A DNA stretch of 54,684 nucleotides, taken from UHGV virus genome UHGV-0199215. One strand, written 5' to 3'. Of the stretch, positions 1,276 to 51,864 are shown one piece after another. The notes under the pieces were generated by a model. The model did not search any database. It had not been told where the DNA came from and saw only the letters and a list, made by a program, of their open reading frames with translations. Source of the stretch: a virus. How positions within the stretch are numbered: the first letter of the stretch is position 1; every line of letters begins with the position of its first letter. The position numbers were made by a program, and so were the translations under genes.

Positions 1276-1506
1276 ATGGGAATGAAACAAATATGGGATG
1301 GTAAAAACCTTCCTCCCATTGGTTGTGAAGTGTTGATCCATCTGGCAAGCATTAACAAGTGGGTGGTACGAACTGTTCAGGGTTATGAAATATGGCCTTC
1401 TGTTTATGAAAATGATACTGCACATCACAGGATAAACATAAAATTTGAAGATAATGTTCGTCTGTTATGTGATGTGCGACCTCTTGACTGGCGTGAACCT
1501 GATTAA
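1276..1506 (+). CDS. hypothetical protein with WDGxxLPPxG motif
   Basis: ATG at 1276 after CAGGAG; shares N-terminal motif with ORF 4927..5391. Confidence 0.45.
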   Translation: MGMKQIWDGKNLPPIGCEVLIHLASINKWVVRTVQGYEIWPSVYENDTAHHRINIKFEDNVRLLCDVRPLDWREPD

Positions 1507-1539
1507 CTGGGTTCGATGGTTGTACTGAGTGGTTAAAAT

Positions 1540-1573
1540 GGAATCCAAATATAACCACTCTAATACGTATAAT
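1540..1573. terminator. hairpin between convergent genes
   Basis: 9-bp inverted repeat gagtggtta / taaccactc; no strong U-run. Confidence 0.3.
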
Positions 1574-2532
1574 CACGGGATAACATTTATATCTTGAGGG
1601 AGAGAATAAGCAACCCGGCAACGACAATTAATCACGTTCGCGGCACTACCGTTAGGATCACGAGGAAACATAAGTGGTCCTAACGGCGTTGAAAACGGTC
1701 TGTCCATTGGTATCCAGCCATTCGTTTCACCTGTGGAAATATGCGCGTCACGTGTCCGACCATCCTTCCTGTACAACCAACGTTTTAATAATTCATTACT
1801 GATCGACCCCGTAACCTGACCCTGACGAATAGCCTGGTCCTGACCAACGGATACAGCACGAAGTGATTCAGTACGCGCTATTGTCTCTGTACGCTGTTTT
1901 ACGTAACGCAAGCGTGTCTGTTCGATTATCTGGTCAATCTTCGCCTGTGATAGTTTCCCGGCACTTACAGCGTTCTTCGCACTGTCTGTAACAGTGGTCA
2001 GACTGTTCACATAACCTGCTTCACCTTTTTCCAGTGCTGACCGCAGACGTTGAACCGTCATTTCCTGCCGTGTGGTTAACCCTATTGATGATCGAAAATC
2101 ACGGGCTATCTGACGCGGATTTCGTCCGGTTACCACACCCTGATTAACTGCAATCTGAACAGCTTTGACTGTTTCGTCACTGACTTCACGGATCAGTTGT
2201 CCGACATAGTTGTTGATGTATGTACTGACCTGTGGGGTGACCAGACTGAACACAACCGGACCTGTCACAGCCGCTTTCGGTAAAACCTGAACGACTACAC
2301 GACCTGATTCGGCGATAGCATCTTCAATAACCGGGCGCAACTGTGCACTAAGTTCATCAGGGAGTGTTTCAAGAATGGGAAGTAATCCGGCAACACCCTG
2401 AGTTTCAATGATGTATTCCAGGTTAGCTAACGACTCACTACGACGCACGTTTTCCCACACGACATCAAGTGCTTCGCGAATGCGAGCGTCATACTTGTCT
2501 GAAATATCCGGGTATGGGTCTTTAGTAGCCAT
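1573..2532 (-). CDS. head morphogenesis protein (Mu F / SPP1 gp7 family)
   Basis: 319 aa; RTESLRA and NCRCR motifs typical of this family; sits after portal in minus-strand order. Confidence 0.8.
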   Translation of the reverse strand: MATKDPYPDISDKYDARIREALDVVWENVRRSESLANLEYIIETQGVAGLLPILETLPDELSAQLRPVIEDAIAESGRVVVQVLPKAAVTGPVVFSLVTPQVSTYINNYVGQLIREVSDETVKAVQIAVNQGVVTGRNPRQIARDFRSSIGLTTRQEMTVQRLRSALEKGEAGYVNSLTTVTDSAKNAVSAGKLSQAKIDQIIEQTRLRYVKQRTETIARTESLRAVSVGQDQAIRQGQVTGSISNELLKRWLYRKDGRTRDAHISTGETNGWIPMDRPFSTPLGPLMFPRDPNGSAANVINCRCRVAYSLPQDINVIP

Positions 2533-2560
2533 AAAAAAGCCTCAGTTAACACACTGAGGC
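2533..2560 (-). terminator. hairpin plus U-run immediately upstream of the MuF start
   Basis: gcctcagttaacacactgaggc palindrome followed on minus strand by U6; 3' arm contains GAGG 9 nt before the ATG. Confidence 0.45.
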
Positions 2561-2705
2561 CGATTATATCATGTGTTACGGGCGTGGAAGATTACGTTTT
2601 TCAGTTCCCTGAATGCGGTTCTTAACTTCGCGGATCTGTTCTTCCAGAAACTGTAACGCTTTTTGCGCTCGTTCGTAGTCTATTTCAAGTTCACGTAATA
2701 ATTTT

Positions 2706-2900
2706 TCATCTTTTGTCACGAGTATAACGTCCTTTAAAACCGGGTCTGACCATCAACTTACCATTCACTACCGCGTGAAATTCACCGTTGGTGTCATCCA
2801 TATATTTATAAACTGTCGCTTTATTACACCCAATCCGCCTGGCAAGTTCTGTCACGTTGCCATAAACGGTGGGTAGTAATTCAGAAATAGTTTGAACCAT
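2706..2900 (-). CDS. putative HTH DNA-binding protein
   Basis: 64 aa; helix-turn-helix-like segment VTELARRIGCNKATVYKYM. Confidence 0.5.
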   Translation of the reverse strand: MVQTISELLPTVYGNVTELARRIGCNKATVYKYMDDTNGEFHAVVNGKLMVRPGFKGRYTRDKR

Positions 2901-3115
2901 TATAATAGTTCCCCTCTGTCATGTGCCACACGTTCGATTAACCGAATCGTGGCAGACCGTTTATCACCGTCATAAGGTTCTTCATAACGAAGATCGTCTG
3001 TGAAAACGATTTGTTCACGGTCACAGTGAATAACAATAATATCGTACTTGACCAGAAGGTCGAATGCCTGTTCACCGTTCATCGTTAAGATATTCCTCTG
3101 CGTGTAATGCAGCAT
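2900..3115 (-). CDS. hypothetical protein
   Basis: 71-aa ORF contiguous with neighbours on minus strand. Confidence 0.45.
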   Translation of the reverse strand: MLHYTQRNILTMNGEQAFDLLVKYDIIVIHCDREQIVFTDDLRYEEPYDGDKRSATIRLIERVAHDRGELL

Positions 3116-3830
3116 AGCTGATCAGGTCTTCCAGACTGTCACGATGTGGTGTTTCAGTGTTGGAATAGAAACGAACCGCTTTTAACAGCATCAGGAATAA
3201 CCACCCTTCACCCGGTGTTAAGTCGCGCCCGGTAATTGTGTTAAACGCAGCAACGATTTTAGCTGACGAACGTTCCTGACCAGACGTGTCATACTGCTTA
3301 CCACGTTCTGTCAGTAGCTGTTCAGCCTGTTTCAGTAAGTCAGACGCTGTTGATGGTTGTTGGACAGGTGTGAATGTACAGCGACAATTTGAAAGTGGTG
3401 TAATTGTTTCAGTTCCGACGGTCATTGGTGACCAGGAACGTTTGTCTGTAATACGAATAGCATAACCATGTTCGACTAACTGGTCGTCATTCCACCCGGT
3501 CGCAATGAATTCTTCGTAAGTATTACCACGGGCTTTCGGTGTCATTAACAGTTTTGTTTTGACAGATGTTGCTGGACCACAAGGGCGTTTTTCAAAGATT
3601 TCAAAGTCATCAGCATTGTCGATAATTTGTGGCGGATTTCTTAAAATTGGTGCGTACATTGAACCGTCAGACCATGCAAAAGTGTTTGTTGTCTTATTAA
3701 GAACAACACATGTAGCCCAGTCTGGCGCTTCACTCCAGTCTACTTGTTGTGTTTTCATTCGATAGTTAAGTGATTGTTTTTCACTTTCAGCATCATATGC
3801 AGGTATGTTCCACGGATGTTCAAACATCAT
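3072..3830 (-). CDS. hypothetical protein
   Basis: 252 aa; internal TYEEFIATGWNDDQLVEHGY motif also found at C-terminus of ORF 30824..31615. Confidence 0.55.
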   Translation of the reverse strand: MMFEHPWNIPAYDAESEKQSLNYRMKTQQVDWSEAPDWATCVVLNKTTNTFAWSDGSMYAPILRNPPQIIDNADDFEIFEKRPCGPATSVKTKLLMTPKARGNTYEEFIATGWNDDQLVEHGYAIRITDKRSWSPMTVGTETITPLSNCRCTFTPVQQPSTASDLLKQAEQLLTERGKQYDTSGQERSSAKIVAAFNTITGRDLTPGEGWLFLMLLKAVRFYSNTETPHRDSLEDLISYAALHAEEYLNDER

Positions 3831-42845: not shown

Positions 42846-45760
42846 TATATTTTCCTGTTCGCATCATAGTTAGACCTGAACGCTTTATTCGTCTGACTGT
42901 ACGGGTCATTCCATTGTGCCGCTGATTGTCGTGGGAATTCTTCACCTATGATAAGCACTACGTCATCCCGTGTTAATCCTTGTTTCACCTGAACACGTTC
43001 ACCACCGTAGTTATGAACCTGAATATTAGGTGATGAGCCACCTTCAGATCCGGGGGTGTATGTCCCACGATTCATTGCTTCCAGAGTGCTACGATAACGA
43101 CTGGTAGCCTGTTTGGTACTGACAAACTCACCATTACTCAAACGTGCGTTTATACTGTCACTCTGACCTGTACCCGGACCTTTAACATAACCACCCGTTG
43201 CAAAACCTGTTGCAGCCACAGACTGAATGTTACCTAACACGCTTGTTCCATATGACAAAGCCTGTGCAATGAACGGAATATTCGCCGGGAACGGCAACGC
43301 CATAGCCTGGCTAACTGCTGTCCACAGGTTAATGCTTGCCTGTGCAATACTAAAGGCTTTAGACAGTGCAAACATCGCTTTATACGCGTTTGATTGCTCA
43401 CCTTTAGATTGTGCCAGACCAGCAGCCATTTGACCCAAAAAATCAGCACTGGATTGTAGCAACAAGCTGTAATTAGCATTTGCAAGATTCGTACGGGCTT
43501 GTTCCCCAGCCTGTTGAATCTGCGTTTTCATATCCTGGTATTGTTGCTCGTTGATTAAATCTTGTTCACGGGCTTGTTGTATGACAGTAAGGCGTTGTGC
43601 TTCCTGCTGATTAACCTGATCAACCTGTGATTGATACGGGTTTAACTCACCCTGTACATCGGTTTGTACCTGTGAAACCTGACCAGCTAACTGTTGCGCC
43701 TGTTGTTGACGTTGCAATGCAGCCACATGTGCATCAACAGCGGCACGTTCAGCATCAGTTGCGTCTTTATTCAGTCGTGACTGTGCTTCAGCCTGTTGTG
43801 AAGCCAGCGTTAACTGTTGACGTACCTGATATTCTTTCTGATACGTTGCTGTAAGTTGTTCAACAGACGACCCCTGTGTTAAAGCAATCTGAACCTGTTC
43901 GCGGGCTAACTGAACATCATAATTACCAGCATTGATTTTATCCTGAAGCGTTTTCAGGTATTTCTGGTTAGCAGCCTGATTACGTTCCAGTTCTTTCTGT
44001 GCACGTTTAGCCGCAGATGCTTCAGCACTGGCTAATTTCTTCTGGTTTTTTTGATTTTCTTTATATTCTGCCTGTTGTTTCAACAACGCAGCATAGTCTG
44101 CAATCTGTTCCTTCGTTGCTTTATTACCCAGTTTCTGACTTGCTGCCAGTTCATAGTTACCGTCAGCAAGCGCCTGGGTGTAAGTGATCTGTTCTTTCAG
44201 GTTTTTAATCTGTTTTGCAGATTCGGCATCAGGACGTCCGGCAGCCTGAGCAGCCGTAATACTCGCCTGTAAAGTGCTTGCCTGATTTGCAAGATTTTCA
44301 GCAACACCCTTACCCAACGGAGTAGCCTGAACAACCCCTCGTTGTGCTTCTGCTTGTTGTTTTGTTAACTGAACATCAAGTTTTTTAAGTTCGTTTAATT
44401 TCTTCTGTGCAGCGCTTGTATCACCAACAAATTTTGTATACCCACCAATTGACTGTGTTGTATACCCACGCTGAATTTGTGCTTCCAGATCTGCAATTTC
44501 TTTCAGATTGGCTTCACGTTTTGCGGTAACACTGTTCAGATTGTTAGTGGCTTGTGCCAGTTTGTCAGCACCTGCAGCGGCTTTTATTAACTCTGTTGTA
44601 CCCGATACACCACCTGCTAACAGGTCCAGGAATTTAGCCAGGAATTTAGATGCACCAATCTGCTGATCGAGTTCAGCGATAGCCACGGACAGGTTGTTAC
44701 GTAACGCAGTGGCAGACTGATCTACAGAACGAGGAAGTTTATCGAACTGTGCGCTGATTTCATCAGTCGCGTTGTTTAACAACAACAGTTTATCACGGGT
44801 AATTTCACCATCAGAACCTAACTGTTTAAGTTCCCCCGTGGTAACACCCATTTGTTTAGCCAGCACCTGAAGAACAGTCGGTAATTGTTCAGATACAGAC
44901 CTGAATTCATCACCCTGTAACCGACCAGATGCAAACGCCTGTGATAACTGGTAGATTGCGGCTGATGCTTCAGCACTGGATGCACCAGAAACACGGGCCA
45001 TTTTCTGTAGGTTATCGGTGAACTGCAGAATAACCTGGTTACTGATCCCGGCATCTTTACCAGCAGCGGCAAAACGCTGAAAACTGTTTGCCGCTGCGTC
45101 AATATCGGTTCCGGCCCGGTTAGCCTGTTGTATGAGTTGCGCGAAGATTTGCTGTGATTCAACTGATGTTGCTGTATATAAACTGATACGGCTTTGCAAC
45201 AGTTCAACTTTCGTTGCTGTGTCTACAAATGCTTTACCCCAGTCGTAAAGTGACCCTGCAATCTGTAAACCAACAAACGCTTTTGCACCAGTGACAAGTG
45301 TTTCAAGAGCGCCTTTAGTTTTTTGTGTTGATTGATTAGTGTTATTCTGCTGATTATCAAGTTTTTTAAGACTGTTAGTCAGATCGTCAATTGCTTTCTT
45401 TTCATCAGCAGTTGCTTGTTTGATAATTTTGGCTAATTCAGCAAATTTCTGTTGATTATTAACAGTCTGACCAGCCGCACGAGCAGCAGCACCCTGTGTT
45501 GCTAACAGGCGTGATTGTTCCTGTGCTGCTTCACGAGTAGCCCTAGCTACAGCAACAGCTTTAGCAGCCTGATTAGCTTGTTGTTGTGCCAGTTGCTGTG
45601 CTGCTTTTGCAACCTGCTGTTCAGCCACAGATAACTGATTGGCAGCCTGTGCAGCAGCTATGGTTGATTTTTCAGTCTGATCTAACTGACTGTTAAGATT
45701 ATTAAGATTGCGGTCAGCCGAACCGGTGTCAATCTTAATATCAATAGGATATTGTGCCAT
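42845..45760 (-). CDS. tail tape measure protein
   Basis: 971 aa, Ala/Gln-rich coiled-coil N-terminal two-thirds; follows the G/GT chaperone pair. Confidence 0.85.
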   Translation of the reverse strand: MAQYPIDIKIDTGSADRNLNNLNSQLDQTEKSTIAAAQAANQLSVAEQQVAKAAQQLAQQQANQAAKAVAVARATREAAQEQSRLLATQGAAARAAGQTVNNQQKFAELAKIIKQATADEKKAIDDLTNSLKKLDNQQNNTNQSTQKTKGALETLVTGAKAFVGLQIAGSLYDWGKAFVDTATKVELLQSRISLYTATSVESQQIFAQLIQQANRAGTDIDAAANSFQRFAAAGKDAGISNQVILQFTDNLQKMARVSGASSAEASAAIYQLSQAFASGRLQGDEFRSVSEQLPTVLQVLAKQMGVTTGELKQLGSDGEITRDKLLLLNNATDEISAQFDKLPRSVDQSATALRNNLSVAIAELDQQIGASKFLAKFLDLLAGGVSGTTELIKAAAGADKLAQATNNLNSVTAKREANLKEIADLEAQIQRGYTTQSIGGYTKFVGDTSAAQKKLNELKKLDVQLTKQQAEAQRGVVQATPLGKGVAENLANQASTLQASITAAQAAGRPDAESAKQIKNLKEQITYTQALADGNYELAASQKLGNKATKEQIADYAALLKQQAEYKENQKNQKKLASAEASAAKRAQKELERNQAANQKYLKTLQDKINAGNYDVQLAREQVQIALTQGSSVEQLTATYQKEYQVRQQLTLASQQAEAQSRLNKDATDAERAAVDAHVAALQRQQQAQQLAGQVSQVQTDVQGELNPYQSQVDQVNQQEAQRLTVIQQAREQDLINEQQYQDMKTQIQQAGEQARTNLANANYSLLLQSSADFLGQMAAGLAQSKGEQSNAYKAMFALSKAFSIAQASINLWTAVSQAMALPFPANIPFIAQALSYGTSVLGNIQSVAATGFATGGYVKGPGTGQSDSINARLSNGEFVSTKQATSRYRSTLEAMNRGTYTPGSEGGSSPNIQVHNYGGERVQVKQGLTRDDVVLIIGEEFPRQSAAQWNDPYSQTNKAFRSNYDANRKI

Positions 45761-49042: not shown

Positions 49043-49382
49043 CCCCTAACAATCGTGGGTTTTGACGATCAAGAAGGCGATATTCTTTACCACGTTCATC
49101 AACCACAACATCCCCCCGATCGGGAACGAATCGTGGTTCAAAACTCTGACTATCCATAATTACCATCGTCGTAGTTATCCTGGTCATAGTAGTCGGATCC
49201 CATTTTTCTAATGGGTAAATATAACCACGACAGGTGTGTGATTCAGTAACGGTTGTACCCGGTAATGTAGGATTAGACGGGTTGGGAACTGTTGTCACAC
49301 GTTTTACCGTCAAATCCTCACCTACTTCAGCAAGTGCACGAGTAACACCATTCAGGACACTTTGACGTTTGTCTGCCATCAC
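49005..49382 (-). CDS. head-tail joining protein
   Basis: Position in module. Confidence 0.4.
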   Translation of the reverse strand: MMADKRQSVLNGVTRALAEVGEDLTVKRVTTVPNPSNPTLPGTTVTESHTCRGYIYPLEKWDPTTMTRITTTMVIMDSQSFEPRFVPDRGDVVVDERGKEYRLLDRQNPRLLGDDMAFIHPVGAA

Positions 49383-49789
49383 CGTTCACCCTCGTTAAGT
49401 GCACGACCACCGCTTTCAAGTGTTACAGGTGGGTTGTCGAACTGACCACGTTGAATAGCAGGTTGCATACCAGCGCCAGTTAATGTAGCTCCACCAACAC
49501 CCATAAAACCACCTAACAAACCACCACCTGAATCAGCGCCAGTATTAATGCGTAAAATAAAATCTTTTTTAAGTTTATTCCAGGCGTCTGCTGACTGACT
49601 ACTGCTGAGTGAGATCGGACCTACTTTAATGTCAGTATCGTTGCTGGCAATAGACGCCATATAATCACAGAGAGCGACGCAAATACTGAGAGGATTTGTA
49701 TAACCGTTGTCAATGTACCACTGAATTTGTTCATCAGTAACATCAGGGACACTGATCAAATAACGAATACCTTCAACTGTAATAGCCAT
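49379..49789 (-). CDS. head-tail connector / adaptor protein
   Basis: Start moved to ATG 49789 (after AGGTGA) because the longer ORF reads through an intrinsic terminator. Confidence 0.4.
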   Translation of the reverse strand: MAITVEGIRYLISVPDVTDEQIQWYIDNGYTNPLSICVALCDYMASIASNDTDIKVGPISLSSSQSADAWNKLKKDFILRINTGADSGGGLLGGFMGVGGATLTGAGMQPAIQRGQFDNPPVTLESGGRALNEGER

Positions 49790-49828
49790 GTGATCACCTG
49801 TGAGAAATGTTTTCGTTATATTAGCACG

Positions 49829-49854
49829 AAAAAAAGCCGTCTTAAACAGACGGC
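49829..49854 (-). terminator. rho-independent terminator
   Basis: gccgtctgtttaagacggc hairpin followed by U7 on the minus strand. Confidence 0.65.
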
Positions 49855-50415
49855 AAATGGCTCTGGGTGATAATGAGGGTTTTACATAACTGGTCATCCA
49901 CACCTGATGTCCCAACATACCCCTATGCGTGACCCGTGAATAACCAGTTATGTAAAACGACACGCAGTTCAGGATGTTTCACAACATGCTTTACCCACGA
50001 TTTGCGGCTTTCCCGCCAGCAAGATAAGGATCACCTCCTTATCAGCGAGTGTTTGGGTTGTGGCGGTCGGTGCTGAACCCCGACTTAATGACGATAGGCG
50101 TGTACCGACGCCTCGTTTTACTTCCTCCGCTTTCACGGCTTCACCCTAGACCAGCTTTACGAAATCCTCGTAAACCTAACCGCGGCAGATATGACCGGCA
50201 CGGTGTGCCATATCACGGACCGGCGGGTGTCTCGTTCACCTGATTAACGCATCAGCCTGCGTATTCACCACAACGATAAGAGCACTGAGATGTATGATAA
50301 TCGTCGCAGCACCACTTTAAACAACTCAATGCTCTTACCTGTTGTGTGCCGGTTACGTTTATCCGGCGTCTTTCGACCGATTAAGTGATAGTGTCTGCTA
50401 TGCAGTTCTGTCACT
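49855..50415 (-). ncRNA. candidate structured non-coding RNA (GC-rich, promoter-to-terminator unit)
   Basis: No credible ORF; at least five hairpins in 50023-50214 plus a 12-bp long-range stem; minus-strand promoter-like site upstream and terminator downstream. Confidence 0.4.
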
Positions 50416-50421
50416 GACTTA

Positions 50422-50450
50422 ACAATAGGTCAAGAATAGTTATATGTCAA
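50422..50450 (-). promoter_or_regulatory. promoter-like site (partial match to conserved family)
   Basis: Reverse complement gives TTGACA, 17 nt spacer, TATTGT. Confidence 0.4.
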
Positions 50451-50783
50451 GCCTTGTGATTCACACCATTCAGCAGCGGCACTTTTACTACTAAACGATT
50501 CTGAATTCATCGGCATACCCATAACATAAACGTTATAGGTTTTTGGCGCGTCACGTCGGATTTCAGCAGCTGTGGTTGATGCCGATTCTTCGGTTGCTAC
50601 AGTCACTGGTTCTTCAATGGTCACAGTAGCTGGTTCAATGTGGCGCATACGCACAAGGGCATTTAAAACAGCCGGGATAGCTTTTGATGTTGATACTTTA
50701 TCGCCAGCGGACATCTGTTTACCATTCCACAGCATCGGACGGGTGAAAACATATTTCAGTGACGGATCATATGAATTACGCAT
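50430..50783 (-). CDS. hypothetical head-associated protein
   Basis: ATG 50783 after GAGGT; follows major capsid gene and its terminator. Confidence 0.45.
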   Translation of the reverse strand: MRNSYDPSLKYVFTRPMLWNGKQMSAGDKVSTSKAIPAVLNALVRMRHIEPATVTIEEPVTVATEESASTTAAEIRRDAPKTYNVYVMGMPMNSESFSSKSAAAEWCESQGLTYNYS

Positions 50784-50796
50784 GATTTTAACCTCA

Positions 50797-50824
50797 TAAA
50801 AAAGGGGCAGCATAAGCCACCCCT
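50797..50824 (-). terminator. terminator after major capsid gene
   Basis: ggggtggcttatgctgcccc hairpin followed by U6 on the minus strand. Confidence 0.55.
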
Positions 50825-50844
50825 TAATGATATCACAGTTGTTA

Positions 50845-51864
50845 TTAAACCGCGTCGTAGAACAGAACGCCCAGGTCAGGTGCAACCATCTGAACATCAA
50901 TGGCAAATTCCGCTTCAACGAAATTACCACGGCGACCTTCAACACCCGGATAGGTGCGGATAGACGGACCGTTGTTAACACCCAGACCGATGAATTCGTT
51001 CCACACGAAGCCAGCAGCAGCAACAGGTTTCATGTTACCAACAGTCGGTTCAACATAGTTGAGCATCAGCACACCAGTTTTAGCAAACTGGAAGTCTGAC
51101 ATCGGATTGCCGTCACCGTCTTCAACGCCATCAGCAGCCATGTTGACCACGGATTGCATGATTTCCAGTTCGTCAACTTCCAGCAGTGCAGCCAGTGCCT
51201 GTTTAGTCACGATCCCCGGATTCTGAGTGGTAGAACCACCGTTAATGCGGTCAATAACAGCCGGGCTACGGGTCAGTGCGTCATACACGTCCAGCGTCAT
51301 CAGTGCTTTGTTCCAGCGACGACCACCGGATGCCAGAGAGAACGCAACACGACGTGACAGGATATCACCAATCGGATCGGCATTCGCATTAGACCATTTC
51401 AGGAATTGACCCGTGGACGGAGACGCGTCTTTACCCTGGAAATCAAGACCCCATTTACCAGCGGTCAGGAATTTTTCAGCAAAATCCACTTCTTTGTTGA
51501 TCAGTAACGCATCTGTGGTTACTGCAGACGCTTCCATATCCAGTTGCTGACCGTTCTGAACGTTTGCACGTTTTTTGTCAGAAATGAAGATACGGATCGC
51601 ATCGTCATCAACGGTGTAACCCTGGTTTTTGGTTTTGTAACCAATAGTGTTAGCAACACCATCTTCGGCACGTTTGGAGTTAACCGGACGACCGAAATAC
51701 CCTTTCGGGTAAGTCAGAAACTTACCAGCAGCCTGATTAACAGGAACTACCGGGAAATAACGAGTGCCGACAAACAGTGATGTATCCTGCCAGTAACTTA
51801 CAGAAAAATTAGACAGGAATGTATCTGGTGCGCCAACGTCGCGAAAATTCTGTTTGTAACTCAT
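50845..51864 (-). CDS. major capsid protein
   Basis: 339 aa; position after decoration and scaffold genes; strong terminator follows. Confidence 0.75.
   Translation of the reverse strand: MSYKQNFRDVGAPDTFLSNFSVSYWQDTSLFVGTRYFPVVPVNQAAGKFLTYPKGYFGRPVNSKRAEDGVANTIGYKTKNQGYTVDDDAIRIFISDKKRANVQNGQQLDMEASAVTTDALLINKEVDFAEKFLTAGKWGLDFQGKDASPSTGQFLKWSNANADPIGDILSRRVAFSLASGGRRWNKALMTLDVYDALTRSPAVIDRINGGSTTQNPGIVTKQALAALLEVDELEIMQSVVNMAADGVEDGDGNPMSDFQFAKTGVLMLNYVEPTVGNMKPVAAAGFVWNEFIGLGVNNGPSIRTYPGVEGRRGNFVEAEFAIDVQMVAPDLGVLFYDAV

Follow-up and report, generated by a model that had tools for sequence, protein, structure and literature searches.

The gap and its flanking genes

The stretch of DNA analysed here, UHGV-0199215 (54,684 nucleotides, below called the window), belongs to a Sashavirus/9NA-like siphophage whose region 49300-51000 is 98% identical to phages PDP46, Sasha, Sergei, Solent, and KarinMuster in megablast/blastn searches. 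Between two genes of its structural region lies a protein-free gap of 637 bp (49793-50429), which is, on balance, probably a tRNA-less allele of a horizontally mobile phage cassette for stable RNAs and transfer RNAs (tRNAs). The genes around the gap are read from the minus strand. Upstream, at 50430..50783, a Sasha gp37-like gene encodes a protein of 117 amino acids (aa; phrog_19242, E 3.8e-66), and the major capsid gene adjoins; downstream, at 49379..49792, a Sasha gp38-like gene encodes 137 aa (phrog_21889, E 2.5e-85, residues 2-137), starting with the ATG at 49792 in agreement with both the Sasha annotation and the PHROG match. An earlier sequence-only reading of the region put the gap at 466 bp because it used a GTG-extended open reading frame (ORF), 49379..49963, which would cross a strong terminator and a 15-bp hairpin.

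Pfam has no match for any of the gap ORFs (64, 55, 49, 46, and 32 aa), nor has PHROGs for the four of 64, 55, 49, and 46 aa; this agrees with the sequence-only reading, which had seen no credible ORF and had named a conserved translated small protein as the finding that would speak against a structured RNA. The probability that such a protein is encoded here is practically nil. ORFs of 64 aa (plus strand) and 55 aa (minus strand) do exist, and the PDP46 and PJ16 records annotate plus-strand ORFs at this place, but the gap ORFs cross the borders of the modules and alleles described below, and their starts and ends are therefore not conserved. PGAP calls no gene on an identical segment in 119 Escherichia coli genomes, and an ORF of 17 codons that follows a Shine-Dalgarno (SD) sequence in the gap is not conserved.

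The segment 49829-50420 folds with -220.4 kcal/mol on the minus strand (z -5.67 against dinucleotide shuffles) and with -198.2 kcal/mol on the plus strand (z -5.54), and thus beats its shuffled controls on both strands. All five hairpins pointed out earlier fold as described, and the preference for the minus strand is borne out by two elements, D1 and B4, which are 11-12 kcal/mol more stable there than on the plus strand. The content of guanine and cytosine (GC) is 51.5% in 49900-50299 versus 43.8% in the window. This corresponds to the 98th percentile of 400-bp windows, not to the maximum, and the region of the capsid gene reaches similar values. The GC-richness noticed before is thus real, but it reflects an imported allele (a segment of about 235 bp with 54.9% GC) and not a special composition of the gap.

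A candidate promoter of the sigma-70 type, TTGACA-17-TATTGT with 10/12 matches, lies at 50422..50450 (minus strand, read from 50450 to 50422) and overlaps the end of the upstream gene; an identical site is annotated as a promoter in the record of phage AVIO78A, and the cassettes of other genera likewise start with TTGACA-type sites. At the other end, about 40 nt upstream of the next gene start, a putative intrinsic terminator (49829..49854, minus strand) consists of GCCGUCUGUUUAAGACGGC, with the stem at 49854-49836, followed by U7 (T7 in the DNA). It is annotated in Sasha, Sergei, Solent, and AVIO78A, and conserved in 9NA, SP069, and Carvaje. Both signals had been proposed from the sequence and are present, and the layout from promoter to terminator fits the suggested discrete transcript of roughly 580 nt. 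Matches to promoter and terminator patterns are no more numerous in the region than in its shuffles, so these signals are no proof of function.

RNA modules and their covariation

Structure prediction shows the gap RNA as a chain of autonomous modules: leader hairpins, D1, D2, the SD block, B4, and the terminator. The leader module B1 (50347..50412, minus strand) comprises a GNRA-capped hairpin, GGUC-GAAA-GAC, followed by a second hairpin, CCGG-AUAAACGUAA-CCGG; its fold is worth -15.5 kcal/mol (z -2.8). It is common to Saltrevirus, Shuimuvirus, and Klebsiella Ackermannviridae at 90-97% identity, with the variants of the tetraloop limited to GAAA, GAGA, GACA, and GUAA, and with covariation in the second stem (CCGG/CCGG versus CUGG/CCAG). 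A further conserved leader block (..GGTATTCCAGTTCCTCAT..AATCTGGCGCACTGGCCCGGTGTGATTAATAATGGGCAC..), absent from the window, is found ahead of D1 in cassettes of the Klebsiella type and in PJ16, a phage of E. coli; in coordinates of the fetched loci it occupies Carvaje 430-600, L012 200-370, and PJ16 1280-1440, and it occurs in L017 and L028 as well.

D1 (50270..50345, minus strand) is a helix of about 20 bp, ACAAC-A-GGUAAGAGCAUUGAG / CUCAGUGCUCUUAUC-GUUGU, with a 27-nt apical loop; in the window it has 19 bp and one bulged A. It corresponds to what had been taken for a long-range pairing, and its predicted stability is -28.7 kcal/mol on the minus strand (z -5.1) versus -17.6 kcal/mol on the plus strand. 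Among 24 examples representing 12 sequence classes, cognate arms form 17.2 bp on average and non-cognate arms 4.9 bp; 36 of the sense-strand pairs are G·U, and the mean on the opposite strand accordingly falls to 11.9 bp. The paired arms include AAGAGCAUUG/CAGUGCUCUU, AAGGGCAUUG/CAGUGCCCUU, GGUGAGCGUAUUGG/CCAAUACGCUCACC, CUGUAACGACGCUUC/GGAGCGUCGUUACAG, and CCACGAAUGAGAGUAUUG/CAGUAUUCUCAUUCGUGG, and the apical inserts range from 22 to 105 nt, some of them with pieces resembling the T-arm of tRNA.

D2 (50057..50274, minus strand) can be described as a tRNA-shaped domain. Its closing stem, GUUGUGGUG/CGCCACAAC, is followed by AAU, a 5' hairpin of 5 bp with a 6-nt loop (ACGCA-GGCUGA-UGCGU), a variable interior, and a 3' hairpin of 5 bp (GUCGG-GGUUCAGCA-CCGAC) that abuts the 3' closing strand. 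The same plan recurs in 20 distinct alleles of 58-218 nt, with closing stems of 7-9 bp and interiors of 40-170 nt. One allele, of 130 nt, contains a D-arm-like GCUCAAUGGCGAGC and a canonical T-arm, GGUUCGAUUCC, and the topology of D2 is therefore regarded as tRNA-like. The 5' hairpin occurs in compensatory variants (ACGCA/UGCGU, GCGCA/UGCGC, GCUCA/UGAGC), and in the window the sequence directly following D2 has no terminator. A tRNA-like 3' CCA after D2, seen in the window and in lambda as CACAAC-CCA, was considered and dropped, as it is not conserved in other cassettes. In the D2 interior of Jedunavirus ZCEC13 (1321-1367 of the fetched locus) a 47-nt piece matches models of small-subunit ribosomal RNA (rRNA) with E 1.2e-7 and resembles helix 11 of 16S rRNA; hence the "cargo" of D2 can be rRNA-like as well as tRNA-like.

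It is also worth mentioning that the motifs ACAAC and GUUGU(GG) alternate four times on the minus strand, at 50345-50341, 50274-50268, 50063-50057, and 49985-49980. The second, GUUGUGG, could close D1 by pairing with the first or D2 by pairing with the third, and the two stems thus compete for the same 5 nt; this could constitute a switch, or the motifs could be mere shared recombination joints.

The SD block (49962..50050, minus strand) contains three predicted hairpins: one at 50043-50023, GCGG-GAAAG-CCGC at 50016-50004, and the GNRA hairpin AUGUU-GUGA-AACAU at 49987-49974. The first, an 8-bp hairpin GAUAAGGA/UCCUUAUC, had been described as sequestering an SD-like sequence; it folds in this way, and the complementarity is longer than was reported, as all 14 nt of TAAGGAGGTGATCC (minus strand, 50041-50028) are complementary to the 3' end of 16S rRNA (14/14). 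This sequence is unique in the window, where even its 9-mers occur nowhere else, and consequently no real gene of the phage uses so extended an SD sequence. In the SD-block alignment (A2; 13 distinct sequences from four lineages) 99.5% of the cells are paired, versus 35-49% with the partners slid, and four pairs change on both sides; one pair of the GCGG-GAAAG-CCGC hairpin is G-C in 8 and A-U in 5 sequences, and one pair of the AUGUU-GUGA-AACAU hairpin is U-A in 6 and C-G in 6. A UUG-started ORF following the SD core has 17 codons in the 9NA-like phages, with non-synonymous differences, and only 6 codons in two other lineages, because a hairpin-preserving change creates a stop; it is therefore the RNA structure, not a peptide, that is conserved in this block. 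A covariance model of the block (R1) finds a single copy in the window and none in the Saltrevirus-, Shuimuvirus-, or lambdoid-type cassettes, which makes the SD block an optional module.

These properties bear on the idea that the SD block docks the 30S subunit by 10-14 nt of pairing with 16S rRNA, acting as a decoy or sponge, or stabilising the RNA in the manner of a STAB-SD. The extended and unique complementarity speaks in its favour, as do the core GGAGGUG(A/G)UC, invariant in four lineages with an A-to-G change that keeps the pairing as G·U, and the UUG mini-ORF, always 11 nt after the core. On the other hand, the invariance of the core is partly imposed by the search pattern, which required it; folding predictions sequester the core in every lineage, each time with different partners; the folding energy of the block has no strand preference; and the module is missing from most cassettes. 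As the explanation of the gap, such a ribosome-binding element is very unlikely.

B4 (49879..49958, minus strand) has a perfectly paired stem of 15 bp, which extends to about 22 bp, and carries the apical motif AUAGGGGUAUGUUGGG. It is the most stable element of the gap, at -36.7 kcal/mol on the minus strand (z -7.6) versus -24.3 kcal/mol on the plus strand. Cassettes of the Saltrevirus/Shuimuvirus type have the same apical motif, AUAGGGGUAUGU(A)UGGG, within an unrelated 12-bp stem, one pair of which is U-A in 7, C-G in 6, U·G in 3, and C·A in 1 of the copies. Covariation across the two types was judged by eye only, because MAFFT could not register them. B4 is absent from 9NA, SP069, and Carvaje, and a pattern scan of viral contigs yielded mostly chance matches, with only the Saltrevirus/Shuimuvirus-type and Sasha-type copies being real.

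Comparison with related phages, proposed earlier as a check, thus revealed covarying pairs in D1, the SD block, and the leader, and weaker signs in B4. The compensatory changes and strand-specific G·U pairs in the aligned sequences support selection at the RNA level on the first three modules and, less strongly, on B4.

Alleles, relatives, and the link to tRNA genes

The segment 50051..50287 (minus strand), extending from the 3' arm of D1 through the 3' closing strand of D2 and including the GC-rich core, has a counterpart with 99.6% identity over 237 bp in 119 of 5426 complete E. coli genomes, and the P22-like phages CUS-3, Huey, and IME10 match it at 98-99%. In E. coli prophages and CUS-3 it is located between the Q antiterminator and holin genes, in the same orientation relative to transcription. 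A block at the 3' arm of D1 and the start of D2 is still more common, being present, never annotated, in 735 of the 5426 E. coli genomes; the cryptic prophages DLP12 and Qin of E. coli K-12 were checked as well and are without the modules.

In the sister phages Sasha, PDP46, AVIO78A, and L018/L031, whose flanks are 98% identical to those in the window, other alleles occupy the position of this segment. At the Sashavirus level a constant frame of leader, SD block, B4, and terminator, at least 98% identical, encloses two hypervariable positions, and near-identical phages contain at least five allele combinations. The window has a D2 interior of the CUS-3/E. coli prophage type (218-nt D2), Sasha a 58-nt D2, PDP46 a hybrid D2, AVIO78A a D1 loop identical to that of lambda, and L018 and L031 a ZCEC13-type D1 loop together with the 130-nt D2, and PJ16 possesses a Klebsiella-type leader. 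The points of exchange are the conserved stem halves ACAAC.., ..GUUGUGGUGAAU, and ..CCACAAC. Sequence comparison thus shows the GC-rich D2 interior of the window as a recent acquisition from a P22-like prophage by a swap at these stem halves.

Every junction between alleles falls in a conserved block (GTGGTGAAT, CACAAC, and, in PDP46, CCGG). The blocks might then be mainly a matter of DNA, homology patches or cruciform-prone sites for the shuffling of modules. Short conserved inter-module sequences proposed to mediate mosaicism are established in lambdoid phages as "boundary sequences" (PMC3029335), and the authors of the CUS-3 annotation used this term beside the very segment. However, the G·U pairs lie on one strand (36 in the sense orientation), the D1 helices become shorter on the other, the GNRA loops are conserved as a class, and the orientation is always that of the adjacent tRNAs. 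The blocks of the window, read as halves of RNA helices under strand-specific selection, would therefore have a reason for conservation other than recombination. A purely DNA-level role is accordingly quite improbable, and it is compatible with a mobile RNA cassette, of which it would be a side effect.

A sensitive blastn search with the gap sequence gave short-block matches in 206 phage records, and sequence comparison shows that the modules are shared and exchanged among many enterobacterial phages. In lambda the D1 arms (ACAACAGGTAAGAGCATTGAG...CCAGTGCTCTTTCCGTTGTGCTGAAT) occur directly after tR', with CACAACCCAAAC further downstream; CUS-3 has these blocks too, its D1 arms being identical. 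The unit of Saltrevirus 64795_sal3 and Shuimuvirus IME207 consists of a TTGACA-type promoter, the leader, D1, D2, and a B4 homologue, followed by tRNA genes (tRNA-Met or tRNA-Ser plus tRNA-Arg(UCU)), and is antisense to the flanking tail and head-tail genes. In Jedunavirus ZCEC13 the order differs from that in the window, being promoter, D1, SD block, D2, and terminator, antisense to baseplate genes. Erwinia phage Gungnir39 has a lambdoid-like layout with tRNA-Met, and in the Klebsiella Ackermannviridae phage Magnus several modules accompany an above-threshold match to the small RNA STnc100. The Klebsiella 9NA-like phages Carvaje and VLCpiS10a carry tRNA-Ser(GCU) and two D1 units in the homologous gap, and the gap of 9NA itself keeps only the SD block and the terminator, to which SP069 adds a short D2-like remnant.

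The link to tRNA genes is also visible in numbers. In 22 of 47 cassette copies, all from fetched loci and biased by the way in which the sample was collected, a tRNA gene on the same strand lies within 900 nt, and no copy has a tRNA on the opposite strand only. ARAGORN finds no tRNA gene in the whole window. The phage tRNA cassettes (those of Saltrevirus and Shuimuvirus with tRNA-Met, tRNA-Ser, and tRNA-Arg, the Carvaje type with tRNA-Ser, and the tRNAs of Stx phages downstream of tR') resemble the window in the leader, D1, D2, and B4 and in the arrangement from promoter to terminator, the Carvaje-type Klebsiella phages even in the genomic slot, but differ in possessing a tRNA gene. Since its modules stand in the orientation of tRNAs without any tRNA gene, the window was filed as a tRNA-less variant of these cassettes.

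Such a variant could also be a decaying relic, left without function after loss of the tRNA, with conserved blocks that are only young DNA spread by recent recombination. The tRNA-Ser of relatives at the same place, broken T-arm fragments in some D1 loops, the loss of most modules from 9NA and SP069, and a D2 allele that is not unusually stable in the window are what a relic would leave behind. It would hardly leave helices that compensatory and G·U changes have maintained in many sequence classes and genera, nor leader and B4 loop motifs conserved while the stems change; moreover, lambda, CUS-3, 119-735 E. coli prophages, the Sashaviruses, and ZCEC13-type phages all still have versions without a tRNA. 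We regard a functionless relic as unlikely.

The distribution of the modules bears equally on a cis-acting leader, in which the structured RNA, especially its sequestered super-SD, controls translation, stability, or termination of the downstream head-tail genes. In the window, as in all 9NA-like phages, the unit runs in the same direction as the gp38-like gene and directly precedes it; the minimal gaps of 9NA and SP069 retain nothing but the SD block and the terminator, apart from the D2-like remnant of SP069; and D1 and D2 of the lambdoid phages are located in the leader of the late operon. Nevertheless, a strong terminator stands between the unit and the gene, the modules stand alone and antisense to their neighbours in Saltrevirus, Shuimuvirus, and Jedunavirus, and even phages whose flanking genes are 98% identical differ freely in which modules they have and in what order. 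A cis-acting leader is thus rather improbable. The earlier proposals of a private regulatory RNA or of a leader for the head-tail genes do not fit the occurrence of the same modules in lambdoid late leaders and in antisense cassettes with their own promoter and terminator. The unit of the window is real and structured, essentially as the sequence-only reading described it, yet shared, mosaic, and partly dispensable, and not a unique regulator.

Known RNAs and a possible mode of action

In Rfam no credible family matches 49300-51000 at E<=10, the best hits being microRNA and small RNA (sRNA) models far below their gathering scores. The proposed ribozyme, as well as a riboswitch, finds no support there. 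A match to isrP at 50798-50947 (27 bits, gathering score 45) was rejected, as it is driven by a terminator at 50802-50825 and is not a real isrP. On 19 related loci Rfam detects, as far as the modules are concerned, nothing beyond STnc100 in Magnus and true tRNAs; at least three RNA motifs, D1, the SD block, and B4, are new to it. Some copies of D1 and D2 with T-arm pieces suggested Y-RNA/YrlA- or transfer-messenger RNA (tmRNA)-like readings, which were abandoned: the tmRNA matches were below threshold and confined to the T-arms, and no YrlA was found.

D2 has structural counterparts in STnc100 (RF02076) and PasD1/PasD2, Hfq-associated sRNAs that lambdoid prophages produce in abundance from the region between Q and the lysis genes (Zhu, Shabalina and Storz 2026; Pearl Mizrahi et al. 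2021). The sequence of PasD1 is GCAUGGUGAAU-[hairpin]...[hairpin]-CGCCAUGC, and the D2 of the window (50274-50057) has the same layout: a closing stem, GGUGAAU, a 5' hairpin, an interior, and a 3' hairpin abutting CACC and the closing strand. However, the RF02076 model has a gathering threshold of 47 bits and gives no match to the window at E<=10, in contrast to 52.9 bits in Magnus, which served as a positive control. STnc100 and PasD are primary PR'-tR' transcripts with a terminator at the end; D2 lies within a longer unit. The coordinates of PasA-D were taken from PMC8550237 Table S6, and the PasD1, PasB, and PasD2/PasA loci of E. coli E2348/69 were compared with the gap by blastn at word size 9, with no match. 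As neither Rfam nor blastn places the window among them, D2 is considered to be built like STnc100/PasD without being one of them. PasD1 itself (1024-1233 of the fetched E2348/69 locus) starts directly behind the promoter TTGACT-17-TATTAA, which lies downstream of Q-region genes, and has a terminator at its end; it thereby resembles the short PR'-tR' transcript of that prophage, the class of lambda 6S RNA and StxS.

With the lambdoid late leader (lambda ~44,790-44,940; the Q-S spacer of CUS-3 near "bsq3/bsq4") the window shares true homology: its D1 arms are 100% (23 nt) and 88% (25 nt) identical to those of lambda, the joints GUUGUG.UGAAU and CACAACCCAA are common to both, the D2 interior is 99% identical to that of CUS-3 and E. 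coli prophages, and the orientation relative to late transcription is the same. The position is different, as the window unit lies between capsid-accessory and head-tail genes, not between Q/tR' and the lysis genes, and lacks Q, PR', and tR'; it has, in addition, the leader, SD block, and B4 modules and its own promoter-like site.

Hairpins processed by RNase III are known from the stems of rRNA operons and the early sites of T7. D1 resembles them in being a near-perfect duplex of about 20 bp that brackets a variable insert, its sequence drifting while the pairing is kept; it offers about two turns of mostly Watson-Crick double-stranded RNA, with compensatory change among the D1 examples compared. 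Sy et al. (PMC7547250) cite Daniels et al. 1988 for sites in the late RNA of lambda that RNase III processes, and we infer that these sites may fall in the lambda homologue of D1 (44,791-44,861).

The tRNA cluster of T4 is another point of reference. It encodes species 1 and 2, small stable RNAs that are structured but not tRNAs, co-transcribed with the tRNAs and released by processing; their function is not known. The T4 RNAs have been demonstrated experimentally, whereas those of the window are predicted from sequence.

If the gap is a tRNA-less cassette, the following mode of action can be proposed. Transcription of the minus strand up to the terminator (50415 to 49829), begun at the promoter-like site of the unit, continued from the capsid operon by read-through, or both, would yield an untranslated precursor of about 585 nt. 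The D1 duplex would serve as a processing site of the RNase III type, the tRNA-like fold of D2 as a handle for tRNA-processing enzymes, and cleavage of the precursor would release small stable RNAs of a kind with STnc100/PasD or with those of the T4 tRNA cluster. The stems would double as recombination joints at which alleles are swapped, and in other genera the same scaffold carries real tRNA genes. The cassette family is widespread and largely unannotated, and part of it corresponds to the lambdoid late leader. If this reading is right, the post-tR' stretch of lambda-like phages, STnc100/PasD, and the leaders of tRNA cassettes in virulent phages would form one family of exchangeable RNA modules, the classical "boundary sequences" would acquire a functional reason as halves of RNA helices, and the recurrent unannotated or mis-annotated gaps in the structural operons of phages would be explained.

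Several observations weigh against this reading. The promoter and terminator of the gap are pattern matches only, and the proposed cleavage by RNase III and RNase P derives from the shape of the predicted structures, its one anchor in the literature being the citation of Daniels et al. 1988 in PMC7547250. No Rfam model scores on the window or on the other D2 alleles, be it STnc100, tRNA (RF00005, gathering score 29 bits, no match at E<=10 in 49300-51000 or in those alleles), or another family, and the Pas loci compared share no blastn match with the gap. The D2 allele of the window is no more stable than its shuffles (z -1.43), with too few variants for covariation. The covariation counts rest on few independent lineages, and the conservation of the SD block was partly forced by the search pattern. 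Finally, a much shorter gap without the leader B1, D1, and B4 serves 9NA and SP069 well, from which it follows that most modules are dispensable for this type of phage.

A bolder proposal, which we put forward tentatively and hold to be doubtful, is that enterobacterial phages of many families share an "RNA socket", in which D1 and the acceptor-like stem of D2 are fixed and the cargo (tRNAs, tRNA-like folds, a 16S-like helix) is swapped. The hypervariable locus would then be engaged in an arms race, its products serving as decoys or substitutes where host defences attack tRNA, rRNA, or translation, with the SD block as a further translation-directed module.

Some minor observations concern the annotation of the relatives and the neighbourhood of the gap. 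In Magnus, positions 1400-3300 of the fetched locus contain several of the modules and STnc100 (52.9 bits, 3072-3286) amid annotated ORFs of only 30-45 aa, and this stretch is probably an unannotated array of non-coding RNAs. Likely mis-annotations were noted, in coordinates of the fetched loci, at PDP46 1580-2164 and 2324-2545, 9NA 972-1517, and PJ16 1075-1512: N-terminal extensions of the gp38/gp42-like gene cross the terminator (in PDP46 also B4), and plus-strand "hypothetical proteins" are situated inside the RNA cassette and have no family support. In the window, the strong intrinsic terminator at 50802-50825 (minus strand), already mentioned as the driver of the isrP match, is located directly 3' of the major capsid gene.

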